64,000 bases of DNA from an uncultured virus (IMG/VR IMGVR_UViG_3300050821_004776) (lineage: Duplodnaviria; Heunggongvirae; Uroviricota; Caudoviricetes), in the IMG/VR virus record IMGVR_UViG_3300050821_004776, one strand, 5' to 3'. The position numbers were made by a program, and so were the translations under genes. Positions within the stretch are counted from its first letter, which is position 1. Each line of letters opens with the position of its first letter. This document shows positions 13,542 to 47,091 of the stretch, one piece after another. Below the pieces are notes generated by a model, which saw only the letters and a list, made by a program, of their open reading frames with translations, ran no database searches and was not told where the DNA came from.

Positions 13542-14201
13542 TCAGGCGCGGACGACCTTCACCGACTCGTCACTGCCGGGGAGATAGAGATTTACCCAGC
13601 CGTTCTCGATACGCAGGGTACGACCGCCGGTCAGCACGAAGCAGTCCGCCGGCCAGGAATTCCGTGTCACGGTCGCGGGGGTGTCTTCCGTGGCATGCGG
13701 GTACCTCCGCATCAGGTCGGCCTGCGCCGCGTCCACCCGGGCGGTCAGCTCTTCCCACTCCCCGCGCGTCCGGCGCGTCGCCTTCTGGTGCCGCTCGGCA
13801 TCCTGGGCGCGGATGCGGCGGCGGGCCTCGCGCAGCAGGCGGGCGGACAGCTCCGCGTAGGCACGGCCGAGAGCCAGGCACTCGCCGGTCACGCGATCGT
13901 GGTCATCGCCGCGCTCGCGCTTGCTGGCCCCGCTGCCGCCGAACACGCGCGTCACCTCGCCGTAGACACTGCCGCCGGCCGGCACCTGGCAGGACACCTT
14001 CGCGACGGCGGCGTCTCCCGTGACCATGACCTGCGCGCTCCCGGCCCGGTAGGCCGAGTCCGCATTCGGCGCGTACGGCGACGAGGCCGTCTGGAAGATC
14101 CCCTGGCCGGGGGAGGCGGAGTCGTATGCCAGCCCGCGCATCGCGGCGTCGGTCACGAACTCCCCGCCCTGCGGCAGTCGTTCCTTCTTCGTCTTGCTCA
14201 T
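13542..14201 (-). CDS. Hypothetical protein, possible DUF1876/dsRBD-fold domain
   Basis: GASKRERGDDHDRVTGECLALGRA resembles the DUF1876 motif. Confidence 0.5.
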   Translation of the reverse strand: MSKTKKERLPQGGEFVTDAAMRGLAYDSASPGQGIFQTASSPYAPNADSAYRAGSAQVMVTGDAAVAKVSCQVPAGGSVYGEVTRVFGGSGASKRERGDDHDRVTGECLALGRAYAELSARLLREARRRIRAQDAERHQKATRRTRGEWEELTARVDAAQADLMRRYPHATEDTPATVTRNSWPADCFVLTGGRTLRIENGWVNLYLPGSDESVKVVRA

Positions 14202-14491
14202 GCGGTGGTGTTACCTTCCTTCACGAATATTTTCGGGGTGCCGATGGGCTTGGCATCCCACTTCGGGTCGCGGAGAACGAGGAGGGTGTCTTCGTCCACG
14301 ATGATGTTGTCCAGGGGCAGGCCGGCCAGCTTGCGCATCGCGGACTTCCTGGCCGCCCCGCGCAGGTCCTGGGCACGGCCGATCGCCCGGCCCACCGCCT
14401 TCTTCAGCCTGCGGCGCTGCGCGGGGGTCTTGCGGGCCGCCTCGAAGCGCTCGGTGCGCGTCTCCAGGGACAGCGGCTGTGTCTGCGTCAT
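14198..14491 (-). CDS. Basic hypothetical protein
   Basis: Start taken at ATG 14491 (MTQTQP); ATGA overlap with next gene. Confidence 0.55.
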   Translation of the reverse strand: MTQTQPLSLETRTERFEAARKTPAQRRRLKKAVGRAIGRAQDLRGAARKSAMRKLAGLPLDNIIVDEDTLLVLRDPKWDAKPIGTPKIFVKEGNTTA

Positions 14492-14555
14492 GACCTGTGC
14501 AACACGAGCCCTTCCGCGCGCATTCCCGCTGGGTGGCAGGGATTGCACTATTCAC

Positions 14556-14675
14556 TGGCGGGCAGCGCACGCTCGTCGTAAGCGGCTCAGGCTGGCCTAG
14601 AGGCCAGCACCGCAAACCCCGGCCACCAGCACAGATACTGTCGGGATGTGCGACCCGCTGGGTAGAATGTCCGTT
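14556..14675 (+). ncRNA. Putative natural single-guide RNA (tracr paralogue + repeat 3' end + guide)
   Basis: 14556-14619 matches the - strand of 32652-32589 at 56/64 nt (first 30 nt identical), then a hairpin, then GGATGTGCGAC (14644-14654), the last 11 nt of the CRISPR repeat. Confidence 0.8.
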
Positions 14676-15218
14676 ATGGCACTGAATCTCCCGGACCTGG
14701 CTAAATTCGCGGCACGCCCGTTCCCGCAGGGGTATCCCGTTGAGGATCACATCACGCTGTACGCCCCCCAGGACAACCTGCACGGGGCGCTGGCCGCGTT
14801 CGTGGATTCCGTCACCACGTCGCTGGTGCTGGCCATGTACGGGTTTGACGACGACGCCGAGGCCACGGCCATCCTGCGCAAGCTCCAGGACCCGGGCATC
14901 TATGTCCTGCTGGTGCTGGATTCTTCTCAGGCCGCCGGCGTGCACGAGAAGAAACTACTACAGCTCATGAACTACCCGAGCAACTCCGTGGTGATCGGCC
15001 GGTCCGAGGAGAACGCGATCATGCACCTCAAGACCGGTGTCGCCGATGGCCTCTTCACCTTCGGGGGCTCGACCAACTGGAGCGCGTCCGGCGAGGGCAA
15101 GCAGGACAACGAACTCACCTTCAGCCGGCACCCGCTGATCGCCTTCCAGGCGCGCACCAAGATCGACCTGATCGCCGAGACGATCCGCACGAAGCAGCAG
15201 CGAGCCCCGGCGGCTTGA
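14676..15218 (+). CDS. Phospholipase D-family (Nuc-like, single HKD) nuclease
   Basis: HLKTGVAD (HxKxxxxD) and GSTNWS motifs; TAGAAT at 14663-14668, 7 nt before ATG 14676, suggests a leaderless start. Confidence 0.85.
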   Translation: MALNLPDLAKFAARPFPQGYPVEDHITLYAPQDNLHGALAAFVDSVTTSLVLAMYGFDDDAEATAILRKLQDPGIYVLLVLDSSQAAGVHEKKLLQLMNYPSNSVVIGRSEENAIMHLKTGVADGLFTFGGSTNWSASGEGKQDNELTFSRHPLIAFQARTKIDLIAETIRTKQQRAPAA

Positions 15219-15532
15219 TGGCGAGTATCAGGGGCCGGGGCCGGAGGCATACGCACCGGTACAAGAAACGCGCCTCTGACGGCTTTACGCCCTACATCGC
15301 CATCAAGACCTGCGCTGCCTGCGGCAAGCAGTGTTACCGGTCGCGTGACGAGGCCAGGCAGTCTGCTAAGATCAATCATCCCGGCCAGGTGATGCACGCT
15401 TACGAGTGCGAGGAGCCCAGCGGCCAGCGCTGGTGGCATCTCTCTTCTATTCCCGCCGGGAAACTCAAGCGACTGAGAGACCGTGAGGCAAATGGAAGAC
15501 GACCAGGACAAGAACGCGGGAACGCTGCCTGA
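15215..15532 (+). CDS. Small Cys/His-rich hypothetical protein
   Basis: CGKQCY...AYEC...WHLS pattern seen in small phage Zn-binding proteins. Confidence 0.55.
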   Translation: MMASIRGRGRRHTHRYKKRASDGFTPYIAIKTCAACGKQCYRSRDEARQSAKINHPGQVMHAYECEEPSGQRWWHLSSIPAGKLKRLRDREANGRRPGQERGNAA

Positions 15533-15866
15533 CAACGAGATCACGCGCGCCATCGACGCCTTCCTGGACGACCCGGGTACTGGGGTAAAACATGAGGGCA
15601 GGACTATCTAACTGGAAGTGCGTGCTGTGCGACAAGCTGGTGAAGCTGAAGGACATCGTCAGCGGGCACCATATGCGGTCCCGGCACCCTGATTACTGGC
15701 CGGACGGGACTCTCGCGGTGATCGATACCGCTATCGAAGAGGAGATGGACTCCTGTGGGTGATCACCGCGCTCCCCGTCATCCCCTGCGCGGATGGCTGA
15801 CCGCTGCCCTGGTTCTGGCAGTCATCGGCATCCTCGCCGTGCTACTGGCACTGCTACTCTCATAGA

Positions 15867-16205
15867 GTGACCAGGACACATCACGCGACTCGAACATGGC
15901 GTCTATCCTGCGGCTGCCTCCGGGACTACCCGGGCATGCAGCTCGACAAGACCCATCACGTGCTGTGCGTGTCCTGTCAGGTACCGGTGATCACCCTGTA
16001 CGCCTATCACGAGCAGCGCTGCGGCTACACCGCGCTAGCCCGGCGGCCCGGCGACCCTGACCCCGTTCACGTGAGCTGCACGAACGAGCCCGGGAATGCG
16101 TCCTGCCGGCAGGGTGTTCACTACGACAGCTACGCTGTGACTAAGTTCGGGGCGCGGGACAGGCTCCGGTCAGGCGCACAGGGAGCGACAGGCAACCCTG
16201 GCTGA
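15867..16205 (+). CDS. Cys-rich hypothetical protein
   Basis: LSCGC and CVSC motifs. Confidence 0.5.
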   Translation: MTRTHHATRTWRLSCGCLRDYPGMQLDKTHHVLCVSCQVPVITLYAYHEQRCGYTALARRPGDPDPVHVSCTNEPGNASCRQGVHYDSYAVTKFGARDRLRSGAQGATGNPG

Positions 16206-30702: not shown

Positions 30703-31095
30703 GTCGCACATCCTGTCTCTCACCACAGGCATTGTCACATCGTCAGCATGCTGTACCCCGGCGTCTTCTTGCTGTCGCACATCCTGTCTCTCACCACGGG
30801 CATTGTCACGCCCTTGAGACGCCGCAGCTCACGCAGTGCCTTGGCGTCGCACATCCTGTCTCTCACCACGGGCATTGTCACCATTGTCACGGCCGGACCG
30901 AGGCGCTCCGGGAAGCGTCGCACATCCTGTCTCTCACCACGGGCATTGTCACATGTACGCCGGGTTGCCGTTCGCCTGCTGGACCGCGTCGCACATCCTG
31001 TCTCTCACCACGGGCATTGTCACCTGAAAATCAGGTGGGGCGCATGCCGGGAACACACGGTCGCACATCCTGTCTCTCACCACGGGCATTGTCAC
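30703..31095 (-). CRISPR. CRISPR array: 6 x 36-bp repeats (- strand GTGACAATGCCCGTGGTGAGAGACAGGATGTGCGAC), 5 spacers of 35-36 bp
   Basis: Repeats start at 30703, 30774, 30846, 30917, 30988 and 31060; spacers 35/36/35/35/36 bp, all different; single variant repeat at 30703 is the trailer end. Confidence 0.98.
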
Positions 31096-31240
31096 GGCTC
31101 GCTTATTTTACCGGCCTTGGCCTGCGGATACGTCCCCGCTTGCGAGCGGCGGGGCGGCCCCAGGCTTCCGGGATCAGGTTATCCCCCCTCTTGTATTCGA
31201 GTTCTGGCTCCCTGCCTGCCTGCGAGCGCTTCCCGGAATT
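31096..31240 (-). promoter_or_regulatory. Probable CRISPR leader/promoter overlapping the nuclease 3' end
   Basis: TAAAAT at 31110-31105, 9 nt before the first repeat; CGCTCGCA occurs twice upstream. Confidence 0.55.
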
Positions 31241-32548
31241 CTGCTGGGCACGCCACCGCTCGCGGATGTTGACAGCGGCGTTGACGTCCGCGTCGGCCTC
31301 GTACCCGCAGCTCACGCACAGGAACCGCGTACTCGCCCGGTTAGCCCTCTCCGTGCAGCCGCAGGCGGGACAGCACTGGCTGGTGTAAGCGGGATTGACC
31401 TCCGGGGCGCTGCCGCCCTTCTGCGCGTACAGCACGGGAATCGCCCCGAGGTTAGCGGCCAGCAGTTCCCGGTTCAGCCCCTTTTTGGCCGCGACGTTCG
31501 TGCCGGGAACCTCTTCAGTGCCGGCGGCCGACCGTGTCATGGCGGGCAGCTTCAGGTCCTCGAAGACCACCGTCTCATAGGAGTCCGCCATCACCCGGGT
31601 GAGCTTGTGCAGGTGATCGCGCATGCGGTGCTCCGCCAGGGCGCGCAGTTCCCGCAGCTCGCCCAGGGTCCGGAGGTACCGCGTACCCGGGTGCCATTTC
31701 TTCCGGCATCCCGGGACCTGGCAGCGCTCCCGGTGCTCAGCCTCCGCTCGCCGCCGCTGACGGGCTAGCCGCTGCTCAAGAGCCGTGTACCTGGCGCGTT
31801 CAGCCTCGGTCAGGCCGGGGGTGATGGCGTAACGCCCGTCGCTGACGGCGACCTGCAAGTTCACGCCCCGGTCCGCGCCCGCTACCGTTCCGGGCAGGGC
31901 CGCCGGCCGCGCGTAAGCCTCAGTGCTGAGCGTGATCACGATCTCGAACTTGCCCTGGATGCCGCGCTTCACCCTGATGCTGGCGATATCAGCACCGGCA
32001 GGCAGCTCCCGGTGATACCGGATCTTCCATTCCCCGCCGAAGGCCCCGGGCAGCTTTACCCGGGCATGCAGCCCTGACACCGAGCGGATCGCGGGTACCG
32101 GCACGTTGGTACCGCCGGCTGTCATGAGAGAGCTGTCCGCGTAGCGTTTCCGGTACCTGACGCTCGCCTTCTCGCCTCGTGCCCGGCGTTCAGTCACCTT
32201 CTTGCGGGCCTGCCTCAGCTCATCGCCTATGGCCGCGCCCAGCGCTACCGAGTGCACGTCGCTCATGGGATACACGCCGTCGTCCCATCTGAAGGTGAGC
32301 TGCTCGCGGATGATCTTGCCCGTCCACGGGTCACTGTACACCGCCGGCTTCGCGGGCAGCATGCCCTTCCCGGCATGGCCTGCCCTGAGCGCGCTGTTCA
32401 CGTCCGCCAGGAACCGGACCTTGAAATTGTAGCCACGGTTGACTCCCGTGACCTGCTTGTCGTACGCGGCCTGCTGTGTCTTGCTGGGGTAAGCCGCGTA
32501 CTTGTATGCCCGGGACTCCCCGGTCTTAGGGCGCTTGCGTTTCGGCAT
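31103..32548 (-). CDS. tnpB: CRISPR-associated TnpB / miniature Cas12-like RuvC nuclease (481 aa)
   Basis: N-terminal AYKYAAYP; RuvC-I GADRG, RuvC-II VFEDL, Zn finger CPAC...CVSC, RuvC-III DADVNAAVNI; adjacent array and anti-repeat. Confidence 0.93.
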   Translation of the reverse strand: MPKRKRPKTGESRAYKYAAYPSKTQQAAYDKQVTGVNRGYNFKVRFLADVNSALRAGHAGKGMLPAKPAVYSDPWTGKIIREQLTFRWDDGVYPMSDVHSVALGAAIGDELRQARKKVTERRARGEKASVRYRKRYADSSLMTAGGTNVPVPAIRSVSGLHARVKLPGAFGGEWKIRYHRELPAGADIASIRVKRGIQGKFEIVITLSTEAYARPAALPGTVAGADRGVNLQVAVSDGRYAITPGLTEAERARYTALEQRLARQRRRAEAEHRERCQVPGCRKKWHPGTRYLRTLGELRELRALAEHRMRDHLHKLTRVMADSYETVVFEDLKLPAMTRSAAGTEEVPGTNVAAKKGLNRELLAANLGAIPVLYAQKGGSAPEVNPAYTSQCCPACGCTERANRASTRFLCVSCGYEADADVNAAVNIRERWRAQQNSGKRSQAGREPELEYKRGDNLIPEAWGRPAARKRGRIRRPRPVK

Positions 32549-32559
32549 CGCATCCCTTC

Positions 32560-32653
32560 ATTCCCGACAATGCCCATGGTGAGAGACAGGGTTCGCGGTG
32601 CAGGCCCGGAGGCCAGTCTTAACCGCTTACGACGAGCGTGCGCTGCCCGCCAT
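32560..32653 (-). ncRNA. tracrRNA-like RNA with 25-nt anti-repeat (32566-32590)
   Basis: CCTGTCTCTCACCATGGGCATTGTC is complementary to the crRNA repeat (24 Watson-Crick pairs + 1 G-U); extended -10 TGTTACAGT at 32667-32659. Confidence 0.88.
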
Positions 32654-34971: not shown

Positions 34972-35007
34972 GAGACTGACGGTACCACGGGGATGGGATA
35001 CCAGCGA

Positions 35008-35175
35008 GAATAGGGGGGTCAAGGGGGGGTCAGAATAGGGGGGTCAAGGGGGGTCAAAGGGGGGTCAAACAGGAGCAGCGCCAACTGGGTCAAGGGGGGG
35101 TCAACACGGCACCCTTTTAAGGGGGCCGTGAACCCCCTGACCCTTGACCCCCCGCTGTTGACCTGACCCCCCCTG
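35008..35175. repeat. Candidate replication origin: iteron-like GGGTCA repeats converging on a palindrome
   Basis: Seven GGGTCA copies, then CACGGC-ACCCTTTTAAGGGG-GCCGTG (35105-35130), then four TGACC(C) copies; lies between divergent primase and polymerase genes. Confidence 0.7.
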
Positions 35176-44162: not shown

Positions 44163-46267
44163 TCAGGGTGCGCATGTGCCGCGCTTGACCAGCGGGCGTT
44201 CCGGCCGTCCGTGCGCGTATGCCATCGCGCTCCCGAAACCGGTCCAGGGCAGGTCCGTGCGGCCAGTCCGCTCCCAGAAATGACCATCGGCGTCTTCCAC
44301 GACGTCCCCTTCGGCCCACTCAGGCTCGCGGTGCGCGACCGCGTCCTCGTAGATCTCCTGGGCGTTCAGGACCCGGTAGCCCTTGCGGATCAGTGCTGCC
44401 CTCAGCTCGTCCAGGGTGATCGCCGCCGGGTGATCAGGGGCAGGGGCGGTCTGCTGATAGGTGAAGTGCTCCGGCTCGCGTCCGGCGTTCCGCAGCGCGG
44501 CTACCCAGCTTCCTTCTCTCAGGGTCCGGGTGTGCGCCGCGCTGCGGGTGCCGTCCGTGCGCTCCACGGTGACGCGGAAAAGGCCGGTCCCCGCTTCGGC
44601 GTTGCCGGCGTCCATGGCGCGGCTCGTTGCGAGCTGCGCGGCGGTGCGGCGGAAGAGGGCCTCCGTCAGGGTGGTGCAGTCATGGAAAGCGAACGTAAGC
44701 TGGCTCTGCCCTGACGCGAGGCCGCCTGTCCGGAGCGCGTGGTGCCGGAGGGCGTTCCGCAGGTCGTGCTTGGTGATGGTGTCGTTGTCGTCAGTGAAGA
44801 AGTGCATCAGGATTTGCCTCCTAGGGCGTTGCTGAGAGCGGTGAAATCGGAGAGGGTGCTCTGGAGTCCGGCCACCGCGACCTGGTAGTTCCCCGCCGTG
44901 AATTCCAGGGCGGAGGTGCTCAGGTCTGTCATCGCCGACCGGTACAGCGCGCCGTCCACCGGGGGAGGGTAGGCGGAGGCTGTCGCGGCGTCGGTACTGA
45001 CCTGAGTCGCCTGGGCGTCGCACTGGGTGTAGGCGACCGCTGTTTTCAGGCAGTCATCCCATGCTCCCAGGGCCGTGACCGTGGCGCTGTAGTCCGCGCC
45101 GGCGTTGCCCGCCAGCCAGGAGTTCAGCGTTACGGTCACGGGCTGTTGCGCGGGGGCGGGCCGGAACACGACCTGGGTCAGTACCAGGGTGATGCCGAAG
45201 CCGAGGATGGCCAGGGCGATGAGGAGCGCCAGGGCGCGGTGACTGAGCTTCATGGGTTAAACGCTAGCCGACCGCGATGGTGACTGTCAGGGCGGTGGGG
45301 TTGCCGAGCGCCGCGTACGCGGCCTTCTTCACGTATAGCGCGCCGACCGCGACGTCCTGATCCGGAGGGGTGTCCTCGTTGAAGCGGACGGTGTTCTTGG
45401 TGGCGCGCTCCTTGGTGAACTTGACAACGAGTTCTCTGGTTTCCTTCTTGACAGCCATCAGGTTGCCTCCTTTTTGATGTTGGTGCGCGATGCGCGGGTG
45501 AAAACGGGTGATACACGGACGCCGATCCGCCAGTGAAACAGCAGCTCGGCGTTGAGGACTCGCTCCATCTTGCGAGCGACGGCTTCCGGGTCCATTCCCT
45601 CGGGAATGCGCTCGGGGTGATCCGTGATAGCGATCACGAACTTGTTTTCCACGACGTTGGTCCGGGGCTTCACCGGCCGGCCGCCCATTTGTAGAGCGCG
45701 TACAGGGCATGCCCGGTGACGGCCCCGCCGTAAGTCTCGGCGAATGTCAGCCAGAAATCCGCTGCCCCGTGCTCGTGGCTTGCGGCGTACAGGATGCAGG
45801 CCATGACCAGCGCAAGGAGGATGGTGGCGGGTTGCAGCGCCAGGGTCAGGAAGCGCTTGAAGGCTTTCACGGTCCCACCCCCCACTTCGGGGAGGCGGCG
45901 AGCACGATCAGCTCAGGAGCCTTGAAACAGTACTCCTGGGTCAGGAGCTTGCGCACCTTGCTGATCGCACGGGGTGCCGTGGTGGCGCTGACGGTTTCCA
46001 GGTGGTTGTAGTCCTCGTGTGCCCAGCGCCACACGACTTCGTACTCGACGGCTTTCACGCGTTCTCCCTGAAGTACTGGACGGTGATGCGGAAGGTACCC
46101 ACGCCGGGCATGACTACCTGGAAGTCCGACGTCGGCGGTGTATCGCTGAGGGCGGTCATCGACCATTCCTGGCTGGCCGGCCCGAGCTGCACGCGGCCGG
46201 TAAAGATCGCGCTGCGGAGCCTGCGGGCGAAGTCCCCCGCGTCCACCGTGGGGTACGGCGGCATCAC
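44163..46267 (-). other. Run of small hypothetical genes (including 44807-45253, 45264-45458, 46055-46267)
   Basis: Contiguous - strand ORFs. Confidence 0.55.
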
Positions 46268-47091
46268 GCGGTTTCCTTAGCGGCAGCACGGCGGCGGGGA
46301 GCGCGGGCCTTCGGCTTCTCTTCCGGCCTGGTGGCCTTCAGCGACGCCTGGATCGCGTCCATCATGTTCACGATCGCCGCGCCGCCCGGTTCGGCGGGCT
46401 TGGGGGCCGCGATGACGTGGCCCTTCTCGATCTTCGCCTGGATCACGGCGGCGACCGCCTCAGTCGAGACATCCTTCTGGGCGGCGTAGTCAAAGTCGCC
46501 GGTCATCTGCTCGATGAGCCTGGCAGCCAGTGCCTGCTCGTCCTCGCTCGCCGTCATCGGCGGGGCCGCGAAGTCGGGCGTGAGCACGTCGGCATGCCAT
46601 TCGAGCGACTCCAGGATCAGGTAGCCGTCCTGCGGGGCAAGCACGGCCAGGGCTACCCGCTGCCGCATGGCGAAGGTCAGGATCGCGACCTTGCCCGACG
46701 CCTGGAGCGCGCCCGCCAGCAGGGCGTAGGTCTTCTCGCCCCCCTTGTCGGGCTGCACGTGGTAGGACGTCTTGATCGCCGTCCGGGGCACGCTCGCCGC
46801 GTTCGTGAACATGAGGATCGACGCCACGCGGTTCTTCGGGCCGTAGGCTGCCTTGAAGTCCTCGTCGTCCAGGATGACCAGGGAGCCGTCCGGGGCGTCG
46901 TAGCCTTTGGCGATGTCATTCCACTGGACTTCCTGCCCGTCCGCCTCAGCCACCCGCGTGAAGCGGATGCGCGAGCCGTCGCTCTTGCGGACCATGTGCA
47001 GTCCGAGCTGGTTGTCCTTGGTGGAACTGCCGAGCTTGACCGGCATGTTCAGGAGCGAGAGCGTGATGGCTCCCGTCCAGATCGATCGCAT
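46264..47091 (-). CDS. ku: Ku (NHEJ end-binding) homologue
   Basis: MRSIWTGAI...PVKL...GSRIRF...IAKGY typical of prokaryotic Ku. Confidence 0.93.
   Translation of the reverse strand: MRSIWTGAITLSLLNMPVKLGSSTKDNQLGLHMVRKSDGSRIRFTRVAEADGQEVQWNDIAKGYDAPDGSLVILDDEDFKAAYGPKNRVASILMFTNAASVPRTAIKTSYHVQPDKGGEKTYALLAGALQASGKVAILTFAMRQRVALAVLAPQDGYLILESLEWHADVLTPDFAAPPMTASEDEQALAARLIEQMTGDFDYAAQKDVSTEAVAAVIQAKIEKGHVIAAPKPAEPGGAAIVNMMDAIQASLKATRPEEKPKARAPRRRAAAKETA

Follow-up and report, generated by a model that had tools for sequence, protein, structure and literature searches.

In a stretch of 64,000 nucleotides from an uncultured soil phage (IMG/VR record IMGVR_UViG_3300050821_004776; hereafter the window), an orphan single-guide RNA lies between two divergent genes, one for a 97-aa basic protein (p97) and one for a PLD-family nuclease, and the first bases of its guide recur a short distance upstream of the RNA itself. 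The question raised by this locus is whether such a short self-match serves RNA-guided control of the flanking promoters, which was the main reading of a first-pass annotation, or whether it records how the RNA gene came to lie there. The features concerned are listed in Table 1.

Table 1. Features of the orphan RNA locus and of the CRISPR locus in the window
Feature	Position	Strand	Evidence
p97, 97-aa basic protein; divergent gene, ancestral, not cargo	14198..14491	-	Orthologs at the corresponding position in L003 and L084
ATTC, candidate PAM/TAM of the split target	14522..14525	+	ATTC also before the intact L003 site; ATGC in L084
Left copy of the duplicated 9-mer (guide positions 1-9)	14526..14534	+	Single copy in L084 (9/9) and L003 (7/9)
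Insertion, 129 bp	14526..14654 (equivalently 14535-14663)	+	p97-ATG to PLD-ATG gap compared with relatives
Weak candidate -10 of the orphan RNA (TGCACT or CACTAT)	14544..14551	+	Putative, by eye
Fused natural single-guide scaffold, made up of a tracr homolog, a short closed duplex, and the 3' end of the repeat	14556..14654	+	Homology to tracrRNA and repeat
Guide, being the right flank, through the PLD -10 to the PLD ATG	14655..14678	+	24/24 to L084:2453-2476; 22/24 to L003:9968-9991
TAGAAT, ancestral -10 of the PLD promoter (probably leaderless)	14663..14668	+	Sequence and 7-nt distance to ATG unchanged in L003 and L084
PLD-family nuclease, single-HKD (NucT/DrmC-like), ancestral neighbour	14676..15218	+	Pfam PLDc_2, 1.5e-9
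CRISPR array, 6 repeats of 36 nt, 5 internal spacers of 35-36 nt	30703..31095	-	
TnpB/Cas12-like nuclease, 481 aa, RuvC triad intact, presumed trans-acting effector	31103..32548	-	
tracrRNA upstream of the nuclease gene, 26-bp anti-repeat	32555..32652	-	Duplex with repeat, -53.5 kcal/mol

The self-match and the insertion

The match to the guide start had been placed at 14526-14536, directly after TTC, with 9 contiguous matches and 10/11 overall, and these coordinates are correct; across 20 positions the upstream copy agrees with the guide at 12/20. Both copies of a 10-bp direct repeat reported at 14525 and 14654 are also present, and the 10-mer occurs nowhere else in the window, but its first C doubles as the final base of TTC at the left copy and of the CRISPR repeat at the right copy, which reduces the true duplication to 9 nt, with one further base ambiguous. 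Direct repeats of at least 10 nt lying 20-200 nt apart form 119 pairs in the window (65% GC), and a 10-nt repeat alone is therefore ordinary; random draws give a 9-nt match fixed to one starting position and at most 150 nt upstream of it in ∼0.9% of cases. The upstream match is on these comparisons not due to chance, and its origin is best traced to an insertion because insert-free relatives keep one copy. In the window, the gap between the p97 and PLD start codons is 184 nt, compared with 55 nt in both L003 and L084, a difference of 129; these syntenic relatives both lack the cassette (2/2) and have the site only once, immediately adjoining the -10. Relatives without the cassette but with one copy of the 10-mer were the observation that the first-pass annotation had itself set against regulation, and its alternative, an insertion scar, is what the two genomes bear out.

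The insert is not an assembly artefact, since both of its junctions are spanned with 0 differences by contigs of two further DNA runs (X2, 14459-16162; X3, 14318-14935) and another assembly, L082, is 99.99% identical over 12 kb; no joint skipping the insert was found among the contigs listed for four of the seven runs. Gain in the window phage, rather than loss in both relatives, is favoured on grounds of parsimony; the filled allele is represented once (n = 1), and three gene comparisons give no single branching order for the phages. DNA identity around the site between the relatives and the window phage is ∼72–77%. No insert-free relative closer than this pair was seen, and the searches returned few comparable loci: the PLD nuclease gave 45 viral loci, with a p97 neighbour in 1/45 (L003) and the scaffold in 0/45; a scan of metagenomes with the promoter motif gave five matches (one the same phage, one L084, syntenic and empty, and three unrelated, which were set aside); an alignment search with p97 returned L003's contig again and no other; and neither the scaffold pattern in viral contigs nor a tail-protein scan for further alleles produced a match. 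A duplication of 9 bp of the DDE type was considered and rejected, as the ends of the insert show no terminal inverted repeats in the repeat list or by eye. The upstream 9-mer is thus best read as the left stump of a split target, of which the guide is the full right-hand continuation, and the short self-match as mainly a leftover, or scar, of the insertion.

Both flanking genes occur in the insert-free relatives. No Pfam, NCBIfam, PADLOC or PHROG family was found for p97, all of whose Atlas matches were <0.9. The PLD nuclease retains an intact HxKxxxxD..GSxN motif and is 76% and 72% identical to its orthologs in the insert-free relatives; it was rejected as effector of the orphan RNA or as toxin cargo, being ancestral. 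TAGAAT does stand in the guide DNA 7 nt before the PLD ATG (14676), as had been noted, and the last 12 bases before this ATG are identical (12/12) in the window phage, L003, and L084. The 30 bases nearest p97 agree at 9–14/30 between the phages, as against 22–24/24 in the target block. Both empty alleles carry a -35-like GTGACG, placed 16 nt ahead of TAGAAT; this GTGACG has decayed in the left flank of the window. The guide overlaps the PLD promoter because it is the flank, and the promoter block predates the insert, so that the overlap calls for no regulatory account; most of the case for promoter control through the seed falls away. Outside the window, AATGTCCGTTATG, a part of the promoter block, occurs a second time without the guide seed at G001:6638-6619 (-), and the block containing AATGTCCGTTATG is probably a shared phage promoter motif.

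The orphan single-guide RNA

The single guide is real at the level of sequence, and its transcription is presumed. Positions 14556-14619 are identical to the phage tracrRNA at 56/64 bases, including all of the first 30, and the differences cluster past these 30 bases and in a hairpin loop. The last 11 nt of the scaffold (14644-14654) are the end of the CRISPR repeat, an 11-mer with seven exact matches (six in the array and one in the orphan). In the orphan duplex, two pairs are changed on both sides relative to the tracr:repeat duplex with pairing kept (T-A to C-G and T-A to G-T), and together with the clustered differences these double-sided changes point to selection on the orphan RNA. The 5' CGCAC of the scaffold can pair with the tail as a pseudoknot partner. 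Judged by folding alone, the RNA does no better than shuffles (z -0.4), and a longer fold allows base-pairing between the guide seed and the 5' end of the scaffold. A search for an Rfam family gave none for the scaffold, and a tRNA scan was also empty. The orphan may be either the ancestral or a re-fused form of the guide; re-fusion of tracr and half-repeat has been reported in dead Cas12f derivatives (PMC10691335), and repeat-like regulators are known (10.1101/2023.03.03.530964).

A scan for the sigma70 consensus found no promoter for the orphan RNA, whose candidate -10 is off consensus. TGCACT precedes the orphan RNA by the distance at which TACAGT precedes the tracrRNA, and a putative -35 would fall on 14521-14528, overlapping the stump. 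Among the matches listed, which come from contigs of four of the seven runs and as contigs cannot prove absence, there is no RNA contig of the orphan; an RNA contig over 14565-14619 was rejected as its transcript, as it belongs to the tracr locus (8 differences, running into the anti-repeat). No second copy of the orphan RNA was found in the window or in G001.

The flank of the fully matching site in L084 is ATGC and that of the L003 site, with mismatches at guide positions 4–5, is ATTC, the same as at the stump. If the PAM were TTC, neither relative would hold a clean target, as L003 has two seed mismatches and L084 has TGC, and this absence could reflect either escape or plain drift. The LaTranC-derived TranC11a is reported to use TTC (10.1101/2025.09.28.678669) but is too distant for its PAM to be transferred to the window nuclease, and RdCas12n, the nearest solved relative, is reported to use an AAC PAM (PMC12216341).

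The CRISPR locus

A CRISPR locus consisting of nuclease, tracrRNA, and six-repeat array lies 16 kb from the orphan RNA. The best duplex with the repeat reaches -35 kcal/mol upstream of the nuclease ORF vs. -20 in the ORF tail, and the tracrRNA locus is covered by one contig of an RNA run. The nuclease scores above cut-off with NCBIfam guided_TnpB, its best folds are TnpB and Cas12f, its best PADLOC profile is Cas12u4 (1e-37), and its best solved relative by sequence is 9j09, which is RdCas12n. The RuvC residues D226, E330, and D421 are invariant in eight aligned proteins. Close homologs in the search number only two (56–58%), both without DNA context; a genome scan with the nuclease alignment gave 22 loci, all of them distant Ktedonobacteria TnpBs (24–39% identity), and a search of viral contigs gave two distant loci, with none from the alignment-based search. 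Cas1, Cas2, and Y1 transposase were not found in the 132 of 184 window ORFs (of at least 100 aa) that were scanned.

Protospacers were found for 0/5 array spacers. The array gave no match in GenBank phages and six weak partial matches in plasmids (E 0.4–4), an exact scan of viral contigs with spacer 5 gave none, and comparison of all spacers with 107 loci, G002/G003, and 42 viral records gave nothing convincing. The reverse strand of spacer 5 (30773-30739, -) resembles, in related phages, the end of the gene for a 583-aa tail protein (22/35 to G003, in the PAM-distal half only), a hint that the array may target relatives.

Several smaller features accompany this locus. A TAAAAT -10 lies at the end of the nuclease gene (31110-31105, -), 9 nt before the first repeat, and the array seems, from this motif, to have its own promoter. 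The last bases of spacer 3 (30916-30882, -) are the opening 9 of the repeat, probably duplicated by slippage. The 19 bases past the last repeat (30702-30684, -) recur 78 nt downstream (30624-30606, -) inside the next gene, with the flank CCGC; they would form a second guide matching its own neighbourhood, where cutting would follow if CCGC served as a PAM, and they may be the cassette's own homing guide. No homologs of the gene holding the recurrent 19-mer were found outside the window phage. An AT(T/C)CCCGC-like motif lies ∼30 nt upstream of both RNA genes (32683-32652, -; 14522-14556, +), with similar -10 regions, and the promoters or left ends of the tracr and orphan genes may be homologous, a weak likeness. 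A conserved L-x-P-x-x-W-G..R-rich C-terminal tail, predicted to be disordered, is found in P0001-P0003 and P0005 (34% identical) and may mark a wider family or an RNA/promoter element.

A proposed RNA-only homing or competition element

The insertion, its duplication, the full-length match to empty alleles, the tracr and repeat homology, and the intact RuvC triad are the observations behind a reading that is held to be fairly probable, in which the 129-bp insert is a protein-free, RNA-guided homing or competition element, driven in trans by the phage's CRISPR nuclease, which cuts insert-free alleles while the filled allele is immune. Its transcription and loading, the PAM, cleavage, homing, and the route of the duplication would then be as follows. 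The insert would encode a one-piece guide RNA whose guide is the DNA directly after the insert, as in IS200/IS605 TnpB elements, and this orphan RNA would be loaded in trans into the TnpB/Cas12-like nuclease of the phage. The complex would recognise the uninterrupted allele through the PAM and 20–24 nt of the conserved PLD promoter block, either in related co-infecting phages or in the phage's own genomes that lose the insert by slippage between the 9-bp repeats. Cutting of the uninterrupted allele would either destroy the rival or be repaired off the filled allele, copying the insert. The filled allele would be immune, as its left copy has the PAM with only 9 matches and its right copy has the full match with CGAC, the end of the repeat, in place of the PAM. 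Loss by slippage would recreate a perfect target, and the element could thereby guard itself. Conservation of the promoter block across phages that are otherwise ∼72–77% alike locally would widen the range of rivals, and the target suits homing in that it falls on the conserved portion of the spacer region. The duplication may have arisen, as a guess, when a cut target lost bases from its left end and that end was then ligated to the RNA gene; the phage encodes Ku.

Such a cycle has precedents. TnpB is reported to cut the empty donor joint, after which repair restores the element (PMC8612924; 10.1101/2023.03.14.532601), omegaRNA-only elements served in trans have been described (10.1101/2023.03.14.532601; PMC10691335), and a gene drive by TnpB between competing plasmid copies has been reported (PMC11870625). 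The match to the empty allele is itself no proof of activity because a guide that is the flank matches by construction, and a local identity of ∼72–77% may be too far for homing. An extended form of the homing reading is doubtful: the stump would also act as a feedback site that represses the RNA's promoter, making the gene drive self-limiting, and one nuclease would serve two guide systems, a split tracr/crRNA array and an unsplit 129-bp RNA-only homing element in a promoter that rival phages conserve. The phage would then preserve a living stage between TnpB omegaRNA and CRISPR and would supply its 481-aa enzyme with a natural sgRNA of 99 nt.

As the empty target is visible in relatives and the partner nuclease is identified, the role of the element in homing or in inter-phage killing is directly testable, and the material needed is small (one protein, one 99-nt scaffold, and two natural alleles). 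The presence of unsplit and split guide forms in one genome bears on the origin of type V CRISPR from TnpB, and the orphan scaffold makes a compact natural sgRNA available.

Alternative explanations

Autorepression as a selected function, in which the complex would bind the 9-nt stump uncut and damp the RNA's own promoter, PLD read-through, or the p97 promoter, is unlikely, although several features would suit it. ATTC and the 9-mer are intact on the left even though they are severed from the -10 and the next 30 bases differ strongly between phages, the stump overlaps the likely -35 of the orphan RNA, and no seed match exceeds it in length across the window and the 10.4 kb of G001 outside it, where no other match of at least 7 nt follows TTC. 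Short guides are reported to act as repressors in tracr-L (PMC11417352) and vsgRNAs (10.64898/2026.06.01.729453), TldR, which is derived from TnpB, is reported to bind with a ∼6-nt seed (10.1101/2023.11.30.569447), and TnpB ChIP off-targets suggest weak seed needs (10.1101/2023.03.14.532601). However, the 9-mer match is fully explained by the duplication, and its intactness is to be expected if the insert is young, since at a divergence of 8/64 the chance of 9 unchanged bases is p ∼0.3 (the authors' own arithmetic). In addition, p97 and the PLD gene are present without the cassette in 2/2 relatives, the cas/tracr promoter has no seed match of at least 7 nt, unlike the case of tracr-L, and an enzyme with an intact RuvC is not a dead repressor. 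With its full-length target lying elsewhere, the RNA-guided autorepression or divergent promoter control first proposed for this site recedes as the main reading. As a side effect of the homing layout, binding to the stump that damps the RNA or PLD read-through is about evenly balanced between yes and no.

The insert might also be an inert relic in which transcription or loading has ceased, whether a remnant of some older TnpB element or a stray product of recombination between tracr and repeat, and the off-consensus -10, the lack of an orphan RNA contig among the matches listed, the lack of a second copy in the window or G001, and the pairing of the seed with the scaffold 5' end in the longer fold would agree with this; the 30 leading bases shared with the tracrRNA, the double-sided duplex changes, and the intact repeat end and pseudoknot partner make it improbable. 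Even less credence is given to a decoy, in which the orphan RNA would sequester either the nuclease of the phage itself or a compatible TnpB/Cas12 of the host, in the manner of vsgRNA or Racr. Phage single-guide RNAs that sequester Cas9 have been reported (10.64898/2026.06.01.729453), but no matching effector other than the phage's own was found, the genome scan having given only the distant Ktedonobacteria TnpBs, and a decoy needs no position inside its own target; this reading is very improbable.

Comparison with known systems

The homing reading is closest to IS200/IS605 TnpB-omegaRNA and to standalone omegaRNA or PATE-like elements, which are described as alike in having the right flank as guide, the empty site as target (here 24/24 and 22/24), and an RNA-only element served in trans. 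IS605 transposition leaves no duplication, and the insertion route is therefore not explained by it: insertion occurs 3' of the TAM without duplication, whereas the window insert has a 9-bp direct repeat, a difference that would disappear only if the left-end match were coincidental. The effector in the window is moreover CRISPR-associated with a split tracr/crRNA, unlike that of IS605, and Y1 TnpA (Y1_Tnp) was found neither in the 132 of 184 window ORFs scanned nor in the three records (0/3), with an orphan copy number of one. The biological role of standalone omegaRNAs is stated to be unknown (PMC10691335). Within the titles and abstract starts covered, which take in few subscription papers, no fused Cas12-type guide inserted in its own target was found in a phage that also has a split system, and relative to the standalone omegaRNA/PATE idea, a fused guide inside its own target beside a split CRISPR system would be the new element.

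The nuclease and its array resemble TranC and other TnpB-to-Cas12 intermediates, such as the phage-borne CauTranC9 and Cas12r, which as reported share the TnpB-sized nuclease, the short downstream array, the lack of detected Cas1/Cas2, and the phage location (10.64898/2026.03.27.714800; 10.64898/2026.04.20.719267). As in type V CRISPR or TranC-like loci, the TnpB-like RuvC effector adjoins an array and a tracrRNA anti-repeat is present; the window phage differs from TranC in having the tracr upstream of the gene and a second, unsplit guide 16 kb away inside its own target, and LaTranC itself is only weakly similar to the window nuclease (E 8e-7). Cas12n (V-U4) is alike in the best PADLOC profile, the best solved relative RdCas12n, and a disordered C-terminal tail, but its tracr is reported to overlap the 3' part of the ORF (PMC12216341), whereas the anti-repeat in the window lies upstream. 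The PAM of Cas12n is reported to be A-rich (PMC12216341), and the target is flanked by ATTC in the window and L003 and by ATGC in L084.

Natural single guides with a short match near a promoter are also found in tracr-L, scaRNA, vsgRNA, and TldR. These use Cas9 or a dead TnpB and target a cas or host promoter, whereas the window system has an intact RuvC and a full-length target in rival phages; the cas promoter in the window has no match of at least 7 nt, unlike in tracr-L/vsgRNA systems, and the match sits at the orphan RNA's own flank, while TldR has an inactivated RuvC triad in place of the D226, E330, and D421 retained here. CreTA/CrePA are CRISPR-repressed toxin-antitoxin systems in which the toxin gene travels with the regulatory RNA; unlike them, the window locus has no travelling toxin, since PLD and p97 occur in both insert-free relatives. 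Free-standing homing endonucleases of phages (PMC13565253) and viral CRISPR mini-arrays (PMC11656645) are reported to attack a conserved site of related co-infecting phages in a comparable way, and differ in that the specificity in the window lies in a 129-bp RNA gene inside the target, using the phage's own nuclease.

Further features of the phage genome

The window is identified as phage by genes for tail, primase, PolA, SNF2 helicase, Ku, and lysins, and its GC content together with Rv2632c-like and resuscitation-type domains suggests an actinobacterial host. The Ku protein, relevant to the repair of cuts, is encoded at 46264-47091 (-). A gene for a PD-(D/E)XK nuclease with an intein and a LAGLIDADG domain lies at 29173-27254 (-), where the phage of L003 aligns across without the middle part, and constitutes a second homing element in the phage. 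Between the divergent primase and PolA genes, tandem G-rich repeats at 35007-35100 are possibly a replication origin.
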